Origin: an uncultured Opitutia bacterium
Lineage (GTDB): Bacteria > Verrucomicrobiota > Verrucomicrobiia > Opitutales > UBA953
Reading direction: 5' to 3'
Assembly (NCBI GenBank): GCA_903919185.1
Contig: CAIXHF010000087.1
Coordinates: 18,270 to 82,269 of the forward strand
DNA: 64,000 nt
The position numbers and the translations under genes were made by a program. Positions 4,187-12,981 of this stretch are shown one piece after another (the stretch's first letter is position 1; each line of letters begins with the position of its first letter). The notes beneath the pieces are model-generated. The model was not told where the DNA came from and searched no databases. It worked only from the letters and a program-made list of their open reading frames with translations.

Positions 4187-4690
4187 TTAAGCCTCGTTCG
4201 AGCCCGGATCTTCCATGGGCTTGAACATATCGGGGATCGTCAAAGTAGGCAGGGCCATCTCGGGCATCTCATCTGGCATCACTTCCGCGACCACGGCGAG
4301 TGGCATGGAGCCGGCAGACGGGACGATCATACCCTCAGCCGAGGCTTCTTCCGCCAAGGCGTCCTCAACATAGAGCATCAGGCCACTGTATTCGGCCGGC
4401 AAGGTCACCCGCAACTGGACGAACACGAGGGCAAGGACGCAGGCATGGGCAAAGATTCGGCCCGCGCGCTGAGCGAAACGGGCGAGGCCCGCGACCGCCT
4501 GCGTCGCGTCTAAATCGGCCCGACCACGGAGGAAAGCCATCTGGGCCTTATGCAAACGAACACGGGCGTGAAAGCGCTGGCGGATTTCGGTGGAAGCCTG
4601 CAGGGCATTCCGCAGACGCAACACCTGCTCACGGGAGGCGGTACCGTCGAGGTAGCAAATAATCAGCGACTCCAGTTCGGCGTTACTCAT
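4187..4690 (-). CDS. Putative anti-sigma factor (single-pass membrane protein)
   Basis: 167-aa ORF. Its start overlaps the sigma gene stop by 4 nt. It has an N-terminal helical segment (LIICYLDGTASREQ), one hydrophobic helix (IFAHACVLALVFVQL) and an acidic/Met-rich tail. The call rests on position only; no family was recognised. Confidence 0.5.
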   Translation of the reverse strand: MSNAELESLIICYLDGTASREQVLRLRNALQASTEIRQRFHARVRLHKAQMAFLRGRADLDATQAVAGLARFAQRAGRIFAHACVLALVFVQLRVTLPAEYSGLMLYVEDALAEEASAEGMIVPSAGSMPLAVVAEVMPDEMPEMALPTLTIPDMFKPMEDPGSNEA

Positions 4691-5277
4691 TCGCGGAATT
4701 CATCCCCCATGAGTTGACGTAAGGCTTCGCGGGCACGGTTGATGCGGCTTTTCACGGTGCCAATTGAGAGGCCAAGCTCTTCGGCAATTTCCTCGTACGA
4801 CTGGTTGCGGATGTTGCGCATCGTTAGAATACGAGCGTGTTCTGGCTTCAATTGTTCCATGCACTCGGCCACTTTTGTAACGAATTCGTTATGCTCGGCT
4901 TCGTGGCCAGGGCCCTGGGAACCGTCCGAGAGGATGTCGTGCAGGGTGGCACCGGGATCCTCCCCGAGGTCCGCATCGAGGGACATGGACTGGTCACGCT
5001 TCCGCCGACGCCAGTACCAGTACCGATTACGAGCCAGATTCGTGCCAATTTGGTGAATCCAAGTTGAAAAAGTGGCCGTCCCGCGGAAGGAAGCGAGGAC
5101 CCGGTGGGCGCGAATAAAGGTGTCCTGCGTAATCTCCTCGGCATCCTGCCTATTACGAAGCAACGAGAAGACCTTGGCAAAGATTCGCCCCTGGTACCGA
5201 AGGACCAACTCGTTGTACGCCCCGAGGTCGCCATTGCGGGCGCGCTCAAGGGCGGACTGGTCGGCTTCAGTTTCCAT
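4687..5277 (-). CDS. ECF-type RNA polymerase sigma-70 factor
   Basis: 196-aa ORF. Region 2 reads EEITQDTFIRAHRVLASFRG...FSTWIHQIGTNLARN. The region 4 HTH reads QSYEEIAEELGLSIGTVKSRINRAREAL. Confidence 0.88.
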   Translation of the reverse strand: METEADQSALERARNGDLGAYNELVLRYQGRIFAKVFSLLRNRQDAEEITQDTFIRAHRVLASFRGTATFSTWIHQIGTNLARNRYWYWRRRKRDQSMSLDADLGEDPGATLHDILSDGSQGPGHEAEHNEFVTKVAECMEQLKPEHARILTMRNIRNQSYEEIAEELGLSIGTVKSRINRAREALRQLMGDEFRE

Positions 5278-5377
5278 CGTTTAGGGGTGGCTTTAGGGCG
5301 GGTATTTCCTGACTATGGTGCTGACATTAGGGGAGATATCAACTGCTGTCTTCAATCCCCAACCTCCTTTAGGAACC

Positions 5378-7096
5378 ATGTTCACCTCCAGCAAAAAAAA
5401 GACCCCGTTTCGATGGGTCAACTGCCTGAACGGCCAAAAGGGTTCGGCCGACAGCCTCCCGGCACGTTTCCCCCTCCCTTCCGCCAACCCCGCCCTAGGT
5501 ATTTCGGCGTCCGCAGCCGGGCTCTTACTGGAAGCCACCTCGGCGGCACCCGTCTTGGTGAATGGAGCCCTTCTGCGCCCCAAGACGACCATCACCGAAA
5601 CGTCGACGATCCAACTCGAGGACGGGCTTTTCGTGGTTTCGGGGAACGAAGATGACCCCTTCAACTCCGTCCAAACGAATTCGTGGGTCCTGTTCGATGC
5701 AACCACCGGCGACCTGCTGGGCGAGCTACCACCCCAAAAACTACTGGAGTATGCCGCTAACCTCGGCCGGGCGACCGATACACTGGCGTGCACACCCGCC
5801 GGCCTCGAAGTCGGCTTTAAACTTTCGCAGATCGCGGCGCTGCTCACCGTACGCGAAGAAACCGAAGCCAAACCGGCGGCACCGTCCGCCCTCACGGCGG
5901 AACAAAACAAAGGCGCCCATCTTTGCCCTGTTTGCTGGACGCGCTTCGACGCCGGTGATGCCTTGAGCGTCGCTATCCACGAAGACCTCCGCGGCGACCC
6001 CATCCTGGGGGCCGACGCACGCCTACGTTTCCAACCCACGCGTTTCAACGACCAGGGCCTCGCCCTTGACCCGATGGGCTTAGCCTGCACCGACCTTGCC
6101 TGCCCCCACTGCCGACGCCAACTGCCGCCCGGCTACTTGGACATGCCCCACCGCATCCTCTCGGTAATCGGCGCGCCTAGCGCCGGCAAGTCCTACTACC
6201 TCGCGGTCCTGACGCACGTCCTCCAAGACCGGCTGCCCGGGGATTTCGGCCTAGCCTTCAAGGACGGCGACCCGAGCGGCAACATGCTGCTCAATCAAAT
6301 GCGTAATACCCTCTTCTCGGCCGCCACGCCCGAAGACGCCCTACTCGGTAAGACCGCACTGGAAGGCGCGACTTACGAAAAGCTGCCTCGCCTCGGGCGC
6401 ATGGTCTCCCTGCCCCGCCCATTCATCTATTCACTAGCCCGGCCCTCGGCGAGTCGCGACGAGACGTCGATTGTGCTCTACGATAACGCGGGGGAACACT
6501 TCGAACCCGGCATCGACATCCACGACTCGCCGGGCGCGATGCACGTCGCCAACTCCGCTGGCCTGCTCTTTCTCTTCGACCCGACGGCCAACGCTCGCTT
6601 TAAGGCTAAGTTAATCGGCGTAGATGACCCACAGTTAGCGATCAAAGGCCGCATCGACCAACAGGATAGCATTCTGTCCGAGATGGAGACCCGTATTAAG
6701 CGCGTTCTCGGACTCGCCCCTAGCCAACGCATCGCCACGCCACTGGCCTTCGTGGTCGGTAAATGCGATACTTGGCAATTCCTCCTGTCCTCCCCGCTCG
6801 AGCCTGTAGTGAGCGCCGGCAAACTCAACCCCGAGGCCGTGCGCCGAAACTCCGACCGCGTCCGCACCGTCCTCGTCAGCCTTTGCCCTGGTCTCGTGGC
6901 GACGGCCGAAACGCTCGCCAGTGAAATCTGCTACTTTGCGGTCACTTCCTTCGGCCACCAGCCAACGGTTCTCGCCACTGGCCCGAATAAAGGCCGCATC
7001 GCCCCCGACCCCCAGCGCCTCGCGCCCGCCCACGTCGAAGAGCCCGTCTACTGGCTCCTCCATCGCTCGTCCCCTGAACTGCTCCCCAGCCGCTAA
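5378..7096 (+). CDS. Zn-ribbon-containing Ras-like (TRAFAC) GTPase, uncharacterised family (operon gene 1)
   Basis: ORF 5315..7096. I prefer the ATG at 5378, which leaves about 100 nt of divergent promoter space; 5315 is the alternative. CxxC pairs lie at 5924-5935 (CPVC) and 6101-6112 (CPHC). G1/Walker A is GAPSAGKS at 6170-6193. G3 is DNAGE at 6482 (compare Ras DTAGQE). G4-like is VVGKCD at 6758 (compare Ras VGNKCD). The N-terminal approx 180 aa are possibly FHA-like (VLVNGALLRPKTTITETSTIQLEDGLFVV). Confidence 0.7.
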   Translation: MFTSSKKKTPFRWVNCLNGQKGSADSLPARFPLPSANPALGISASAAGLLLEATSAAPVLVNGALLRPKTTITETSTIQLEDGLFVVSGNEDDPFNSVQTNSWVLFDATTGDLLGELPPQKLLEYAANLGRATDTLACTPAGLEVGFKLSQIAALLTVREETEAKPAAPSALTAEQNKGAHLCPVCWTRFDAGDALSVAIHEDLRGDPILGADARLRFQPTRFNDQGLALDPMGLACTDLACPHCRRQLPPGYLDMPHRILSVIGAPSAGKSYYLAVLTHVLQDRLPGDFGLAFKDGDPSGNMLLNQMRNTLFSAATPEDALLGKTALEGATYEKLPRLGRMVSLPRPFIYSLARPSASRDETSIVLYDNAGEHFEPGIDIHDSPGAMHVANSAGLLFLFDPTANARFKAKLIGVDDPQLAIKGRIDQQDSILSEMETRIKRVLGLAPSQRIATPLAFVVGKCDTWQFLLSSPLEPVVSAGKLNPEAVRRNSDRVRTVLVSLCPGLVATAETLASEICYFAVTSFGHQPTVLATGPNKGRIAPDPQRLAPAHVEEPVYWLLHRSSPELLPSR

Positions 7097-7104
7097 CGTT
7101 TTCC

Positions 7105-9237
7105 ATGCCCCTGCAACTGATCTTCACCTCCGCCCCCCGCGGACTTGTCGCCGGACGTTCCGGCTTCTGCACCGTCGCTCGGCATGCCTCGCTTTCGGAA
7201 CGACTCACGCAGCAACTCGAAGCACTGGGCACACCGCACGACGCCGCCGAGGGGGCGACCTTCACCTTCCGTCGGCTCGAAGCTGGCAGCCAAACTTGGT
7301 ATGTGCTATCGCGTTTCGTCGCCCGCGGGCTTGACTATTCGCAACGCGATAATCGCCTCGCGCACCACGTGGTATTCACCGCCGAGGAAGCCGCTGTCCT
7401 CCCGCCGCCCGCGGCACTCGCCCTCCGCTGGAATGACTGGAAAGATACTTGGACCGAAGAGCCGACCTGGCTTCCGGAAGATGCCCGGCCGCTCCCACTC
7501 GCCTCACATCCCGTACTCACGCCGGCCGCTGGCTGGCGTGAATTCGCCGGCACCGGCGCTAAGGCTGCATGGCTGGTCAACGCCACCGGCGCCGCTTCGG
7601 TGTCGTTGCTAAACCCGCCGAACTCCGCGCAACTACTCCGCTTACTCGCGGAATCCTCCGCCTTGCTCGGCCGCGCCGCTTGGTCCGCCACCTTCACCAC
7701 TAACGCCGCCAAGACCGGCGCCGATGGCTTCGATTGGGCCGTGGGTTTCGCCTCGGGACGTCCCACCATCGACCTCGCCCAAGCCGCGCAGCTCACCGCG
7801 CCCACGGGTGAACTAGCCCGCATCGCCGCTACCGGCGCAGGTGCGACCGCCCCCGCTTCCGCTGGCCCAACGGCTTCCGCGCCGCGCCGAACCAACTCTG
7901 CCAGCGCCCCCGCCACCGCCTCCAACACCGTCACGATTGCAGTCGTTAGCCTCCTCGTGCTCGTCGCCGCCGGCCTCGCCATTGCTTACTTCAGTAAACC
8001 CGAAAAGAAGGTCGTCGAGACCACTAAGCCTACCCCACCGCCCATTGACTCGACCGCGGCCGATGAACTCCTCAAGGCCAACCGCGCAATCAGCGATGTC
8101 GATAGTTTCATGGCCCGCAATGACTTTGTCGCCGCCGGCAAACTGTGGCTCGAGAGCTGCAAACTTTCGCCGACCTTTGCCGCCCGCTACCGCGACCAAT
8201 ACTTGCCGCGCCTGAAGTCGAAGTTCGCAGAGACGACCGCGGCCAGCCTGCTGGGCCGACTCGAAAGCCCGACCGCGACCGCCAACCGTAAAGGCATGCT
8301 GGAAATCGCCGAAGACGCGGCCGAAGCGCTCCGCCTTGGGACCGCCCTCGAAGTCACGAAAGGTGCCGCCTGGGAAGAACTCACGCGCATCCAAGCCCGG
8401 GCCCAGATGGTCGGCGCCTTGGACGTCCGACCCGTCATCCTAACCCAAGGCGAATGGCTAACGGCCGACCTCGGACCTAACTCGCCTTCGACCGCCGAAT
8501 TCAAACTCAACATGGCCTCCGCGGAAAAAATCGGTCGATTCATCGACACCACCGGCGCCAACAAAAACACGGTAGTCAGCGCCCGTATTCGCCTGCTACC
8601 GCTAGACTCCTTCCATGCCCGCGAAGAGAAGACTAAATACCAGTCCGCGGAAATCCGGACGGGCAGCCAAGCCAATTGGATCGAAGCCACAAGCAAATCC
8701 GGTCGCCAACCCATCGTGATCGGCGTGGGCTCCCGCCTGAACACGGTGACACTGAACTTCGCCGACAACTCGGCCGCGCAGCTCCGGGACACTAACCAGT
8801 TAATCGAAATCGAATTGCCCGATGGGTCACACCAGACCATCGCGCTCATCGCCAACGTCAAAGCCCTCCGCCCACTCAATCTGGGCCTCGCCGCCCTGAG
8901 GTCGGACGTCGACACCGGCGTGGTCCATGCAGCGGCCTGGGCTGAACCGATTTTGAATTCATTCATCGCCTCCACTGGCTCACTCGGACTCTACCCCGCT
9001 GGTCATGAGTTCCCTGATCGCGACCTCGCCTCAATCCGCGCTACCAAGTCCCTGCTCGATACCGATCTCGTCCGCCTCGAGCGGAAGTCCGGCCCTGGTG
9101 CTCCCTCCTACGATGAAGTCAAAGCCCGCCGCAGCGCTTTCACGGCACAAGATTTCGTCAAAGCCGGCGCCCCTTGGAGCCTCCGAACGGTTTCACCTCG
9201 CGGTGAAGAGGGCCTCCTGCTCGTCGAATTCCGCTAA
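7105..9237 (+). CDS. Large single-pass membrane protein with N-terminal GTPase-associated-protein-like domain (operon gene 2)
   Basis: 710-aa ORF starting 8 nt after gene 1. The N-terminus reads MPLQLIFTSAPRGLVAGRSGFCTVA...GLDYSQRDNRLAHHVVF. An Ala/Pro/Ser-rich linker follows, then one TM helix (VTIAVVSLLVLVAAGLAIAYF, about 7927-7992) and an approx 410-aa helical plus beta-rich C-terminal domain. Confidence 0.7.
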   Translation: MPLQLIFTSAPRGLVAGRSGFCTVARHASLSERLTQQLEALGTPHDAAEGATFTFRRLEAGSQTWYVLSRFVARGLDYSQRDNRLAHHVVFTAEEAAVLPPPAALALRWNDWKDTWTEEPTWLPEDARPLPLASHPVLTPAAGWREFAGTGAKAAWLVNATGAASVSLLNPPNSAQLLRLLAESSALLGRAAWSATFTTNAAKTGADGFDWAVGFASGRPTIDLAQAAQLTAPTGELARIAATGAGATAPASAGPTASAPRRTNSASAPATASNTVTIAVVSLLVLVAAGLAIAYFSKPEKKVVETTKPTPPPIDSTAADELLKANRAISDVDSFMARNDFVAAGKLWLESCKLSPTFAARYRDQYLPRLKSKFAETTAASLLGRLESPTATANRKGMLEIAEDAAEALRLGTALEVTKGAAWEELTRIQARAQMVGALDVRPVILTQGEWLTADLGPNSPSTAEFKLNMASAEKIGRFIDTTGANKNTVVSARIRLLPLDSFHAREEKTKYQSAEIRTGSQANWIEATSKSGRQPIVIGVGSRLNTVTLNFADNSAAQLRDTNQLIEIELPDGSHQTIALIANVKALRPLNLGLAALRSDVDTGVVHAAAWAEPILNSFIASTGSLGLYPAGHEFPDRDLASIRATKSLLDTDLVRLERKSGPGAPSYDEVKARRSAFTAQDFVKAGAPWSLRTVSPRGEEGLLLVEFR

Positions 9238-9243
9238 GCCCGC

Positions 9244-12207
9244 ATGCAGACAGAACGCCTCATCGCCCGTATCCGCGGACAGCTCGAAGTCGGCACGCCC
9301 GACCTCGAGGCGCGCTCGCTGGCCGGTGAATACGCGACGCTCTGCCAACGGACCCGCGAACGGCTGGAGCAATGTGCGGCCCTCATCCGTACCAGCAACG
9401 ACCACGCCGCTCTCCAAGTAGCCGAATCGGAACCCGACCTACTCGGCCTCTGTGCGCTTCTGAGTTTCGCCGATTCGGAACGCTGGCAAGCGCTCTGCCG
9501 TGAACGCGGCCTCCCGACCGGCTTTCCGCTCGACGATCAGCACATTCTCGCGGTCGAAAGCCTCTACGGTAAAGTGATTGGCGAAAACCATCCGCTCTAC
9601 CGCGACTACCGGGAGGCCATGCGCCAACGTGACGAAGATCGCGCCCTAACGGTTCTGCGCTCAATCGCCCGCATTAATCCCGATGATCCGACGGCACGCT
9701 CCGAACTGACGCGCCTCTCCAGTAAGTTCCTGCGGGAAGCGCTGGGAAAGGTCCTGCAACTCTTCGACCAAGGCTCACCCCGCGAGGCCGTGGAGTTGAT
9801 GAATCGGATGGAGCGCTTCGGGGCACTGGTACTGACCAACGAGCCACGCTGGGATGACGCCCTCGCGCGTCGCATCGCTCATCTTCGCGACAAAGCCCAC
9901 GAGCAGATTCGGCTCCTCCTTCCCGAAGCCCGCGCTGCCCGCAACGACGACCAATGGGAAGCCTGCGCCAATCACTTAGGACGAATCCGTACGCTGGAAC
10001 GAGACCATCTCGTCAACCTCGAGGCGGCGAACTTGTCGGAACTTACCACGCTCGAAACCTGGGCAGGCGAACTCGCCGCCACGGCTGAAGCCGAAGCCTC
10101 CCAACGGGCCGCCCTAGAAACGCTGACGAAAGAATGGGATATCCTCCGCCAAGAGGCTAGCCGCGGCTCCTCGCCCGCCCTACTGCTTTCACGGCTTAAC
10201 GTTTGGATCGAAAAGGCGACGCCCCTCGCCGACCGACTGCCCGAAGGAACCGTGCGCGAAGCCCGCGGCGTTCGCCAACTGACCCGGGCTCGCCTCAGCC
10301 GTCGGTACGCCATTTTGACGACTTCGTGGGTCACTGGCCTGCTCTGCTTGCTACTCGGCGCCTACTTGTGGCACGCCCAAGAGGGCAAGGCACAGGAAGC
10401 CAACGATCGCTTCACGGAAATCCAAGCCCTGGTTGAGCGCTGGGAAAACAACGGTGCCATGAATAAACTCGAGAAGCTTAAGAATGACTACCCCCTGTTC
10501 GTCGCGAGCGAAGAAATCAAGACGGGCACCGAAGCACTCCGGCGGCAAGCCCTCGCCCAAGCCGAAACGGAACTGCAACTTAAGACCGAGGCCATCTACC
10601 TGGAACAGCGCCGCAAGGAAGGCATCAATCTAACAAATTTCGCCCCCGTCACCCAACGAGCCAAGGCGTACGTCAGCGAACTCGCTAAGGTTGGCCCCGC
10701 CGCCACCGCACGGTTGCAAACCATCCTACCTGACCCAGCCGCCATCCTCGCTACCTGCACCAAGGTCAGCGAAGAAAGCCGCAACGACCTCTTGGCGTTG
10801 CGTCGTCAACTCAAAGTCGCCCTGGGTGAAGACGAGACCGTCGTCAACCTGACCCGGGCCAACGATGCCCTCGAAAAATTACGCGCCTTACTAACGACCT
10901 TGAGCGCCGCTGGCCTCAAGGATCTCGACGAGGCCTTCGCCGAAACTGACCGTGCGACCCTCCGCCTCGAGGCCGACCAGAAATCCGTCAACGCGGTTCG
11001 CGGGCTGGCAGATTCCGGCGACCTTAAGGCCTACCTCGACGCCTTGGCGGCCGTCGCCGCGACCGCGAAGGAAAATTCCGACCTCCGCAAGCGCGCCAGT
11101 TTCATCACCGAACGCGCTGAGGCCCTCCGCAACCTTCCCCGCTCCACCCTCGCCCCCCGGGTGGGAGCGATGTGGGATGGCTTGGCGAAGTCCGATGCCA
11201 CCGGCCTCTTCCAACCCGACGAACTCCTCGCTTCCGAAGATAAGGTCATCCGCGCGCTAGCCGACGACAAGACGACCACACGCTTGCGTAAATATAACGT
11301 CCGCCAGCATAGCCGCGGTGGCGATCCCCGCATCATGCGCCAGGTCTTCATCGCCAGCGAAATCTCCATACAGCGCAACCTCATCAGCGGTGGAATCGAG
11401 ACCGTCCGTACCGCCAAGGAACTCAGCCGAGACGGCACCCTGGTCGAGTCGTCCTGGAGCTGCCGCGAATTCAACTCCGCTAACGGCGAAACGACAAAAT
11501 CCGGGGAGGACCTTTTGGAAGGCCTCGTGATTCCCGAACTCGACTACCTGCGCCAGTTCAGCCGCTTCTACGACCTCAAGGCCGGCAAGATGTCGGAACC
11601 CCTCCTGCGCAAACTCGACCTCATCCGCCGAAGCCCTACCCCGCACCTCGAACTGCGGGCTTACCAGATGCAGGAGCTCTTCAAGGTGGCCAGCCAACGA
11701 CCCGAGGCTTGGGGCCTACTCTACTCGCCCTCCGCCCAACGCGACGCCGACCAACTTCGCCGCATCACGCAAAATGCGCTGAGTCCTTACGATTTCCTCT
11801 TCAAGGATAAGTGGGCCGACGTGCAACTGGAGCTACGTGCGTTCCTGACGCGCCAGACGGGGGCGACCTACGCCGAGGAAGCGCGCTTCTGGCGGCGCAC
11901 GCTGGGCGAACTGCAATCTAAGAAGTTAATTTTTGCTGGCACCATGGGCCGCGATGGGAAGCCCGTGCTGCGCGAGGTGCTCAAGAACGCCGCACTCTAC
12001 GGTCTTGATAGCGAAGGCAAGCCCGCCCAACTCTTCCGCGCCGATGCGACGGGCAACCTGACACGCGTCAACGAGCCCGCCCTCCTCACGCCGCTGCTCC
12101 GCCTGTCGGGCACGGTCAGCGAAGCCGCCCAAGCGGCCGGTATCCCGGCCGGCCTCACCCCGCCCGACGGCGGCTGGGAATCCATCCTCCAAGGACGCGA
12201 CCTCTAA
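9244..12207 (+). CDS. Very large single-pass membrane protein, helical/coiled-coil rich (operon gene 3)
   Basis: 987-aa ORF starting 6 nt after gene 2. It has an approx 350-aa helical, TPR-like N-terminal region, one TM helix (YAILTTSWVTGLLCLLLGAYLW, about 10306-10371), a long coiled-coil-like stretch and an alpha/beta C-terminus. No family was recognised. Confidence 0.7.
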   Translation: MQTERLIARIRGQLEVGTPDLEARSLAGEYATLCQRTRERLEQCAALIRTSNDHAALQVAESEPDLLGLCALLSFADSERWQALCRERGLPTGFPLDDQHILAVESLYGKVIGENHPLYRDYREAMRQRDEDRALTVLRSIARINPDDPTARSELTRLSSKFLREALGKVLQLFDQGSPREAVELMNRMERFGALVLTNEPRWDDALARRIAHLRDKAHEQIRLLLPEARAARNDDQWEACANHLGRIRTLERDHLVNLEAANLSELTTLETWAGELAATAEAEASQRAALETLTKEWDILRQEASRGSSPALLLSRLNVWIEKATPLADRLPEGTVREARGVRQLTRARLSRRYAILTTSWVTGLLCLLLGAYLWHAQEGKAQEANDRFTEIQALVERWENNGAMNKLEKLKNDYPLFVASEEIKTGTEALRRQALAQAETELQLKTEAIYLEQRRKEGINLTNFAPVTQRAKAYVSELAKVGPAATARLQTILPDPAAILATCTKVSEESRNDLLALRRQLKVALGEDETVVNLTRANDALEKLRALLTTLSAAGLKDLDEAFAETDRATLRLEADQKSVNAVRGLADSGDLKAYLDALAAVAATAKENSDLRKRASFITERAEALRNLPRSTLAPRVGAMWDGLAKSDATGLFQPDELLASEDKVIRALADDKTTTRLRKYNVRQHSRGGDPRIMRQVFIASEISIQRNLISGGIETVRTAKELSRDGTLVESSWSCREFNSANGETTKSGEDLLEGLVIPELDYLRQFSRFYDLKAGKMSEPLLRKLDLIRRSPTPHLELRAYQMQELFKVASQRPEAWGLLYSPSAQRDADQLRRITQNALSPYDFLFKDKWADVQLELRAFLTRQTGATYAEEARFWRRTLGELQSKKLIFAGTMGRDGKPVLREVLKNAALYGLDSEGKPAQLFRADATGNLTRVNEPALLTPLLRLSGTVSEAAQAAGIPAGLTPPDGGWESILQGRDL

Positions 12208-12210
12208 GCC

Positions 12211-12846
12211 ATGGCCAAGCCCGACCAATTCCGCCTACGCTGGAAAGGTGCCGTCACCGGCCCCTTCGCCTTGGCACGTATCAGTGAAATGCTCCGGGCA
12301 GGCGAAATCAGCTTGGTGCACAATATCGAAGTCAACGACGCTTGGCTCACCATTCGTGATTACTTCCGGACAATCGGCCTCAACCGCGGCTCGCTACTCC
12401 CACCGATTGACCCGTTCACTGGGCGTGACGGCCCGGACCTCCCGCCCCCGCCACCAGGCGCAGCTGGCACCATCCACGCACCCGCGATACCCGCGTCATC
12501 GCCCGCGTCCGCCGCCGGCGAAGCACTGGAGCGCAACGTCCGCGAAGGGTATCTCTGGTGCGGCTCGACGTTCCTCTTCCCGCCACTCTTCGCGGTCGTC
12601 GTGCCGCTCTGGGAAAAGACGGTCGGGGCGCTCCCATCGTCCTCAAAATATACGCTGTTCATCTTCGCGACGCTGCTCGGCTGTAGCCTCCCGCTGTGGT
12701 TAGTCCAACGGGTGGGCCGCCAAATCAGCCAAGAAGGCTTGGACGAAATCTCCCAGGCCCAAAGCCGCCTCTGCCTCGTTTTAGCAGGCCTAGGTACGGT
12801 TTTCTGGCTTTTTATGTTCGGGTTCCTCGCCAAGCCCAGCCTCTAA
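12211..12846 (+). CDS. GYF_2 (DUF4339)-like domain membrane protein (operon gene 4)
   Basis: 211-aa ORF starting 3 nt after gene 3. The N-terminal GYF-like segment reads FRLRWKGAVTGPFALARISEMLRAGEISLVHNIEVNDAWLTIRDYF. A Pro-rich linker (PDLPPPPPGAAG, 12442-12459) follows, then three hydrophobic helices. Confidence 0.7.
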   Translation: MAKPDQFRLRWKGAVTGPFALARISEMLRAGEISLVHNIEVNDAWLTIRDYFRTIGLNRGSLLPPIDPFTGRDGPDLPPPPPGAAGTIHAPAIPASSPASAAGEALERNVREGYLWCGSTFLFPPLFAVVVPLWEKTVGALPSSSKYTLFIFATLLGCSLPLWLVQRVGRQISQEGLDEISQAQSRLCLVLAGLGTVFWLFMFGFLAKPSL

Positions 12847-12904: not shown

Positions 12905-12981
12905 GGTAGCGTAGCTCAGTTGGTTAGAGCGAGGGACTCATAAGCCCTAGGTCGGCAGTTCAATTCTGCCCGTTACCACCA
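12905..12981 (+). tRNA. tRNA with CAT anticodon (elongator Met or lysidine-type Ile2, not initiator), CCA encoded
   Basis: Hand-folded cloverleaf. Acceptor GGTAGCG/CGTTACC (one G-U pair). D arm GCTC-AGTTGGTTA-GAGC. Anticodon arm AGGGA-CTCATAA-GCCCT, with CAT at 12939-12941 and a 31-39 A/G mismatch. T arm GGCAG-TTCAATT-CTGCC. Discriminator A, then CCA. The G1-C72 pair argues against an initiator. Confidence 0.85.

Follow-up and report, generated by a model that had tools for sequence, protein, structure and literature searches.

We examined a 64,000-nucleotide stretch of DNA from an uncultured Opitutia bacterium (assembly GCA_903919185.1, contig CAIXHF010000087.1, positions 18,270 to 82,269; hereafter the window, in whose numbering all coordinates are given) and focused on a gene at 7105..9237 of its + strand that encodes a protein of 710 amino acids (aa). 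The host is a freshwater member of the Opitutales (Verrucomicrobiota) and not an actinobacterium, and the protein is annotated merely as “hypothetical” in a Verrucomicrobia metagenome-assembled genome (MAG). Its N-terminal domain places it in the GTPase-associated protein 1 group, and we refer to it as GAP1. Its gene lies second in a row of four genes transcribed in the same direction (hereafter the cassette), which encode a DO-GTPase, GAP1 and two further proteins termed p987 and p211. The spacers between them measure 8, 6 and 3 nt, and no terminator-like site lies between the genes on the + strand.

A sequence-only reading of the window had taken the open reading frame (ORF) at 7105-9237 for a real gene with a GAP1-N2-like signature at its N-terminus, and both proposals held up. 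The translation is the 710-aa protein that was quoted there, its N-terminus MPLQLIFTSAP is kept in all orthologs, and Pfam PF20013 (GAP1-N2) covers aa 4-128 (7114..7488) with 74.3 bits (E = 1.3e-20), where the cutoff is 24. The same match was obtained for 11 of 11 diverse orthologs tested. The two motifs on which the reading had relied, MPLQLIFTSAPRGLVAGRSGFCTVA (aa 1-25) and GLDYSQRDNRLAHHVVF (from aa 75), are where it had put them; its description of the second motif needed correction, as the residues are G-R-S-G-F (G-x-x-G-F) and not G-x-G-F. High-GC DNA gives long spurious ORFs, and overlapping antisense ORFs were listed at this locus, so the resemblance might have been a chance motif match or the ORF no gene at all. 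This explanation has a negligible probability: it is refuted by the strength of the Pfam match, by 458 homologs that are conserved over the full length, by a ratio of nonsynonymous to synonymous substitution rates (dN/dS) of about 0.1 in frame, by RNA contigs and by the linkage to a GTPase gene.

The region that follows, aa ~144-240 (7534..7824), resembles the GAP1-M domain. Its direct Pfam match is below threshold (~15 bits, E ~0.03, in 1 of 11 members), and the assignment comes from a soluble relative, P0273 (294 aa), which combines GAP1-N2 with a GAP1-M domain recognized by Pfam (31.9 bits) and adjoins its own DO-GTPase. Aligned with P0273 by hhalign, aa 1-216 of GAP1 gave a probability of 99.4% over 213 columns. 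The middle region alone, compared with the GAP1-M domain of P0273, gave E = 3.4e-5 and a score of 33.7, while 20 shuffled sequences scored 15.6 or less. AlphaFold2 (AF2) modeled aa 140-245 with a predicted local distance difference test (pLDDT) score above 90. These comparisons argue, with moderate confidence, that the presumably cytoplasmic part of GAP1 consists of N2 and M. A search for homologs of the outgroup architecture yielded mainly fragments. Structural comparison of the N-terminal region with Foldseek returned no significant relative (best E = 0.05); the weak matches, all non-significant, included TagF, FNIP2, GATOR1 (longin-like) and PAS-like folds and are a lead at most.

The canonical third domain, GAP1-C, was not found: no Pfam family matches aa 241-710, and the protein is therefore not filed as a canonical N-M-C GAP1. 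A BACON match of 12 bits in this range was treated as noise. The place of GAP1-C is taken by a flexible linker, a transmembrane (TM) helix and an outer domain, an arrangement that had already been read from the letters. The linker (aa 241-275, 7825..7929) consists to 80% of Ala, Pro, Ser and Thr; it is the least conserved part of GAP1 and has the most relaxed dN/dS. The TM helix (aa 276-296, 7930..7992) is the sole hydrophobic segment of the protein (Kyte-Doolittle 2.75), and exactly one TM segment is present in 119 of 119 full-length orthologs. It leads into a Pro-rich juxtamembrane segment (…KPTPPPID, 7993..8049), whose PPPID core is conserved and whose AF2 confidence is low.

The remaining 414 aa, in which no motif had been recognized, indeed match no family. 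We modeled this C-terminal domain (C-domain) with AF2 from an alignment of eight sequences (pLDDT 86, predicted template-modeling score 0.76). In the model, a bundle of five helices (aa ~316-438, 8050..8418, pLDDT 77-95) is followed by a β-rich module (aa ~439-710, 8419..9234), composed of an Ig-like sandwich and a small α/β piece at the C-terminal end. Foldseek searches against PDB and BFVD gave no global match (query-normalized template-modeling score of at most 0.19) and only local similarity to Ig-like β-sandwiches. Matches to the STAT core (E = 1.5e-4, template-modeling score 0.14, root-mean-square deviation ~20 Å) share only the layout of a helix bundle plus a β-sandwich and were rejected as homology. 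Among PDB chains, single-sequence searches and searches with profiles of the GTPase, the GAP1 C-domain and p987 gave nothing below E = 0.5.

The distribution of the C-domain is narrow. A profile search of 1.84e9 representative proteins recovered 21 matches, and all the full-length ones are proteins of ~700 aa with an N-terminal GAP1-N2, which marks the domain as exclusive to this GAP1 family. It is constant in length and has many invariant residues, for example those of the motif GLYPxGHEFPDRDL (8986-9069), which is conserved among orthologs. The most distant relative does not retain this motif, which speaks against a universal catalytic site. As modeled, the C-domain is a lineage-restricted and previously undescribed combination of folds.

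We infer that GAP1 has its N-terminus inside and its C-terminus outside the cytoplasm, and the “extracytoplasmic” location of the C-domain, which would here be the periplasm, follows in the same way. The N-terminal domain of GAP1 is 275 aa long and has no signal peptide, so that by established principles it would stay inside, and its partner GTPase is soluble and has no TM segment; no result places the N-domain outside the cell. For p987, the residues flanking the TM helix give a clear positive-inside signal for an N-in orientation (N-flank +5).

The gene directly upstream of GAP1 (5378..7096, +) encodes a DO-GTPase of 572 aa, and the linkage of the two is kept across loci and in a distant relative; the suggestion that the GAP1 domain is a GTPase partner is thereby borne out. 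The match to the DO-GTPase2 family (PF19993) is borderline: the cutoff is 27, and the whole protein scores 25 bits, its C-terminal (GTPase) half 27.6 bits. Most close orthologs, called at 572 aa, bear a precomputed PF19993 assignment. The GTPase motifs are intact: a Walker A/G1 motif GAPSAGKS (6170..6193, invariant G-x4-GKS), a Walker B motif DNAGE with the glutamate that is the hallmark of the family (6482..6496) and a G4-like motif VGKCD (6755..6769, K and D invariant). A zinc ribbon (CPVC…CPHC, 5924..6112) precedes them. All four elements are invariant in 105 GTPase orthologs and the outgroups, and the four cysteines also in a set of 12 diverse sequences that includes the outgroup loci L072 and L073. 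The cassette has one GTPase gene with one zinc ribbon, and no paralogous pair.

The longest ORF of the GTPase begins at 5315; the most likely start is the ATG at 5378, which is also the one called in orthologs. In the 63 nt between (5315-5377), the frame is not conserved and related RNA contigs lack one nucleotide at 5365, so that this stretch is probably non-coding. The region before the zinc ribbon (aa 1-180, 5378-5917) stands apart, with a dN/dS of 0.10-0.21 compared to 0.02-0.06 for the core, few conserved motifs (VNG…, W.LFD..G, LACTP.GLEVGF) and no family match. A reading of these 180 aa as FHA-like was dropped for lack of Pfam support.

The third gene, p987 (9244..12207, +), always follows GAP1. 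It encodes a bitopic membrane protein with a TM helix at 10312-10368, an N-terminal part of 356 aa that is probably cytoplasmic and a C-terminal part of ~610 aa that is probably periplasmic. It has no match in Pfam, NCBIfam, PADLOC or PDB, and is homologous to a 965-aa protein at L072 (39% identity over the N-terminal 316 aa). The fourth gene, p211 (12211..12846, +), encodes a highly conserved N-terminal stretch of ~55 aa, a variable linker and three TM helices (12553-12825), with no enzymatic domain. The N-terminal stretch (12232-12375) is GYF-like: GYF_2 was the only recurrent family, and its matches in 7 of 11 orthologs cover profile positions 6-28 at 13-15.7 bits, below the threshold of 25.8. 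Across all four cassette proteins, there was no match in NCBIfam, none in PADLOC-DB v2 at E <= 0.01 and none to fn3 or related Pfam families; the only β-sandwich signal in the cassette searches was the weak local Ig-like Foldseek match of the GAP1 C-domain.

Polyproline motifs of the PPG type are the classic ligands of GYF domains, and two proline motifs occur in the cassette proteins. In 33 of 58 p211 orthologs, the linker contains the motif D-x-PPPP(P)-G (in the window PPPPPG, aa 78-83, 12442-12459). The co-occurrence of this motif and a GYF-like domain in the same protein suggests self-binding, which would be auto-inhibitory, or head-to-tail oligomerization. The GAP1-N2 domain itself carries a family-specific LPPPA motif (aa 99-104, 7399-7416), to which the GYF-like domain of p211 may dock, a candidate contact proposed from the two sequences. 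The form [LM]PPPA is invariant in the TM-anchored GAP1 family and in a distant branch (P0256, P0262 and P0263); ten further GAP1-N2 proteins have no such motif at this position.

We next consider how the cassette is distributed. A search of species-representative genomes with the C-domain returned 68 loci, essentially all in freshwater Opitutae/Opitutales MAGs. Wherever the contig reaches, the gene order is HisC, PtsI, a 167-aa protein (p167) and an extracytoplasmic function (ECF) sigma factor, followed by GTPase-GAP1-p987-p211, and then by tRNA-Met, RsfS, NadD and LpxI. The cassette was present in all 71 loci found via GAP1, as far as their contigs reach. Since a sample of loci collected through GAP1 is biased to presence, we retested the distribution from the ECF sigma gene in metagenome contigs, and found the cassette in 32 of 33 informative orthologous loci. 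Overall, the intact cassette occupies one fixed position in about 100 freshwater Opitutales loci, at 45-95% protein identity. Several MAGs with perfectly syntenic Opitutales context (L005, L026, L052 and L059) are titled “Akkermansia muciniphila” or “uncultured Klebsiella sp.”, which looks like mislabelling by the submitters. Two other MAGs each contain two differing copies of the locus on separate contigs (L031 and L054; L062 and L064), which points to mixed bins of two related strains rather than true paralogues.

Two loci depart from this picture. In one (L107, 1-5429), the site is empty: LpxI, NadD, RsfS and tRNA-Met are followed by 147 bp and then by the ECF sigma factor, the putative anti-sigma gene and PtsI, with no cassette. 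Elsewhere, the 7.5-kb cassette fills exactly this slot between tRNA-Met and the ECF sigma gene. In the other, the most divergent relative (L072, 28% identity), the same four genes are found with different flanks, indicating that their linkage is functional and not merely inherited. The GTPase-then-GAP1 linkage also holds for P0273, which lies beside a 440-aa DO-GTPase2 with other flanks again (L073). The cassette has thus moved or been lost at least once, yet is stably inherited in the main clade.

These findings bear on the possibility that the cassette is a conflict system, acting against phages or by abortive infection, in which the periplasmic domains would detect an invader, the GTPase would set a threshold and p211 would be a membrane-damaging effector. 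Its movement as a unit at least once, given the other flanks in L072, and the clean presence/absence polymorphism beside a tRNA gene are what such a system might show, and p211, with its three TM helices and no enzymatic domain, could serve as the effector. The original description of the GAP1-N2 family moreover cast it as a conflict system, in which TM-rich or GYF-fused proteins take the place of the effector (PMC7159879). Against this, the cassette keeps to a single place amid housekeeping genes in about 100 loci, its flanking genes include no integrase or defence genes, and no component has a PADLOC match. The rapidly evolving component with fibronectin type III (FNIII) repeats that is typical of GAP1-N2 systems (PMC7159879) was likewise not found by Pfam. 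We regard a conflict role as possible but doubtful, and selection, described below, speaks to the same question.

We computed dN/dS pairwise between the window sequence and six relatives. Values were 0.06-0.13 for GAP1-N2 and 0.06-0.10 for GAP1-M; within the GAP1 C-domain, the helical part had 0.06-0.24 and the β part 0.06-0.11. The other values were 0.02-0.06 for the GTPase core, 0.07-0.12 for p987 and 0.06-0.15 for p211. They are similar to those of the neighbours PtsI and LpxI (0.02-0.08), and relaxed values in GAP1 are confined to the stretch of the linker and TM helix. The cassette is therefore under purifying selection. Over deep divergence, identity is ~45% for the C-terminal part of GAP1, ~62% for its N-terminal part and ~72% for the GTPase; the periplasmic parts change fastest, and remain alignable and unchanged in length. 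In both GAP1 and p987, the cytoplasmic part is more conserved than the periplasmic part, a pattern to be expected of proteins that meet conserved machinery on their inner side and the environment on their outer side. For a conflict system, low dN/dS throughout, at the level of the neighbours and with the putative sensor domains included, is unfavourable, as is a sensor domain of constant length with many invariant residues that is not hypervariable.

The cassette also appears to be expressed in its natural habitat. Contigs assembled from lake metatranscriptomes, at 90-95% identity, extend over the cassette and across each of its three gene junctions, which supports in-situ expression as one transcript. 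Strong conservation and expression in situ would also fit a structural or assembly device in place of a signal transducer, such as a GTPase-regulated scaffold across the envelope or a cytoskeleton-like assembly, with p987 as the structural component and GAP1 as its anchor. We consider such a device quite unlikely: the locus has no tubulin, vWA or HSP70 partner genes, unlike the systems of Kaur et al. that stand behind the idea, and the empty site at L107 indicates that the cassette is not essential.

The genes that border the cassette are conserved in position. Upstream and divergent (4187..5277) lie the ECF sigma factor (4687-5277, -), identified by Pfam and NCBIfam as a sigma-70 ECF protein, and p167 (4187-4690, -), a single-TM protein and a putative anti-sigma factor by its position. 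Both always adjoin the cassette, and a regulatory tie of the sigma factor to it is possible. The sigma factor is ~93% identical across lineages in which PtsI is ~71% and GAP1 45-62% identical, while p167 falls to ~43%. The region between the sigma gene and the cassette contains a partly conserved block (…gcTGACAt…gAtTTCAACtgc…), to which no ECF-type promoter could be assigned. No sigma-70 promoter emerged when the region was scanned, and its seven terminator-like sites all lie on the - strand and are fewer than expected from shuffling. Downstream, the boundary is a tRNA-Met (CAT) gene predicted by ARAGORN (12905..12981, +), 59 nt after p211. This tRNA had the highest depth in all four metatranscriptomes, with many loose ends that represent tRNAs of other organisms.

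Taken together, we favour, as the reasonably probable reading, a membrane-embedded GTPase switch with a standing function in the state of the envelope or membrane over a role against invaders. The preference for a standing function rests on fixation in the core genome, expression in situ and purifying selection. What the analysis itself shows are the domain identities, the intact GTPase motifs, the linkage in two genomic contexts, evidence of co-transcription, the selection regime and the restricted distribution of the C-domain. In the proposed mechanism, the four proteins would be made from one operon and form a complex in the inner membrane, with the periplasmic domains of GAP1 and p987 as its input side. 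A change in the periplasm would pass through the TM helix to GAP1-N2/M, which would bind the GTPase and set or read its nucleotide state. That state would in turn control the membrane partners, of which p211, possibly docked by contacts between GYF and polyproline, is the likeliest output and the cytoplasmic part of p987 also a likely one. The literature on this type of GAP1/DO-GTPase system likewise predicts a membrane-proximal role (PMC7159879, PMC11237479). For topology, physical contacts, the direction of signalling and the biological trigger, the scheme depends on what we infer. We propose only tentatively that the Opitutales module is, in particular, a receptor-coupled GTPase switch with no immune function, in which LPPPA and PPPPPG serve in docking and which may be tied to the ECF sigma/anti-sigma pair.

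Several observations weigh against a standing switch of this kind. The lineage of L107 is cleanly without the cassette and can thus dispense with it. The periplasmic parts evolve faster than the cytoplasmic parts, which also speaks for a conflict system, and gene-wide dN/dS is compatible with a few positively selected sites. The discoverers of GAP1-N2 systems class them as conflict systems (PMC7159879), and the literature we searched holds no experimental work on any DO-GTPase/GAP1 system. The RNA evidence consists of assembled contigs of related strains, 90-95% identical, to which carried-over DNA may have contributed. Regarding GAP1 itself, the segments flanking the TM helix in 119 orthologs have net charges of ~+1.8 (N-terminal flank) and ~+1.6 (C-terminal flank), so the positive-inside rule is uninformative; AF2 confidence is low at aa 1-26, its most conserved N-terminal motif; and the GAP1-N2 fold has no significant structural match and may act as a GTPase-activating protein, a guanine nucleotide exchange factor or an effector. 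The conflict reading draws its remaining weight from the empty site, the faster change of the outer domains and the way the family was first classified. Still, fixation in the core genome and the lack of an arms-race signature fit poorly with a rapidly diversifying conflict role.

If the standing, receptor-coupled switch is correct, the whole GAP1-N2 class may be envelope-signalling machinery that is only sometimes recruited to conflict. DO-GTPase/GAP1 systems as a group are widespread. By sequence, no component of the cassette has a relative of solved structure, and the two modeled regions of GAP1 have no significant fold match. The Opitutales version is compact: it has a single GTPase, and its cytoplasmic and periplasmic halves are clearly distinct. 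Its expression in lakes is evident, and nature also provides a lineage with an empty site for comparison. This version is a reasonable model for how GAP1 talks to a GTPase, and it lets the conflict-system label be tested where the system belongs to the fixed core genome and evolves under purifying selection. The cassette by itself overturns nothing. Its novelty is modest, as the class of architecture was published in 2020.

GTPase-centric systems of the GAP1-N2 type were predicted computationally by Kaur, Burroughs, Iyer and Aravind (eLife 2020, PMC7159879). That study defined DO-GTPases by a conserved glutamate in Walker B, found N2-type systems in about 900 genomes, listed verrucomicrobia among the carrier phyla and described TM-fused GAP1 variants and GYF/TM-rich partners; its supplement text has no Opitutae or Verrucomicrobia entries. 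The cassette follows these systems in having a zinc-ribbon DO-GTPase with the Walker B glutamate, followed by a GAP1 with N2 and M. GAP1 is likewise fused to a TM helix and a presumably extracellular part. Closest is the planctomycete sub-type, where a GYF protein is fused to a TM-rich region; the downstream partner p211 is TM-rich and, from its sub-threshold matches, possibly GYF-like. The differences are several. The cassette has one GTPase instead of a pair and one zinc ribbon instead of two, although the “double” GTPase arrangement occurs in 38% of systems and is thus not obligatory (PMC7159879). It has neither a matched FNIII-repeat protein nor a recognizable GAP1-C, its p211 carries one GYF-like domain and not the pair of the planctomycete sub-type, its periplasmic domain appears, from the model, to be a new combination of folds, and p987 is an extra, unclassified bitopic component. 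Finally, the Opitutales locus shows core-genome fixation, and selection on it is purifying instead of diversifying.

Among the relatives encountered here, P0273 shares with GAP1 the N2 and M core and the order of GTPase and GAP1 genes. It lacks the linker, the TM helix, the periplasmic domain and the LPPPA motif, is followed by a different gene and, like GAP1, has no GAP1-C. Its soluble N2-M architecture indicates that N2 and M are the conserved core, to which the membrane and periplasmic part was added in the 710-aa protein. In outline, the cassette also recalls the Streptomyces conservon proteins CvnA-D, and MglA/MglB with Roadblock/longin-type regulators, where a P-loop GTPase switch is combined with a dedicated partner and a membrane component; these are not known to be related in sequence to the cassette proteins, and the only structural pointer is the set of non-significant Foldseek matches of the N-terminal region to TagF, FNIP2 and GATOR1 longin-like modules.

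DO-GTPases have further been reported in PspF/phage-shock operons of Gammaproteobacteria and predicted to act in membrane stress (Ravi et al., mSystems 2024, PMC11237479). This prediction fits the membrane partners of the cassette and the adjoining ECF sigma/anti-sigma pair. The partners themselves differ, being Psp proteins and an NtrC-type regulator, no GAP1-TM protein is described there, and the link is computational (PMC11237479). The 710-aa protein is thus a membrane-anchored GAP1 of a published type of system, and not of a new kind. New are the definition of a four-gene cassette, an outer domain restricted to its lineage, the evidence that the cassette is expressed and evolves under purifying selection, and the testable idea that its components may dock through GYF-polyproline contacts.

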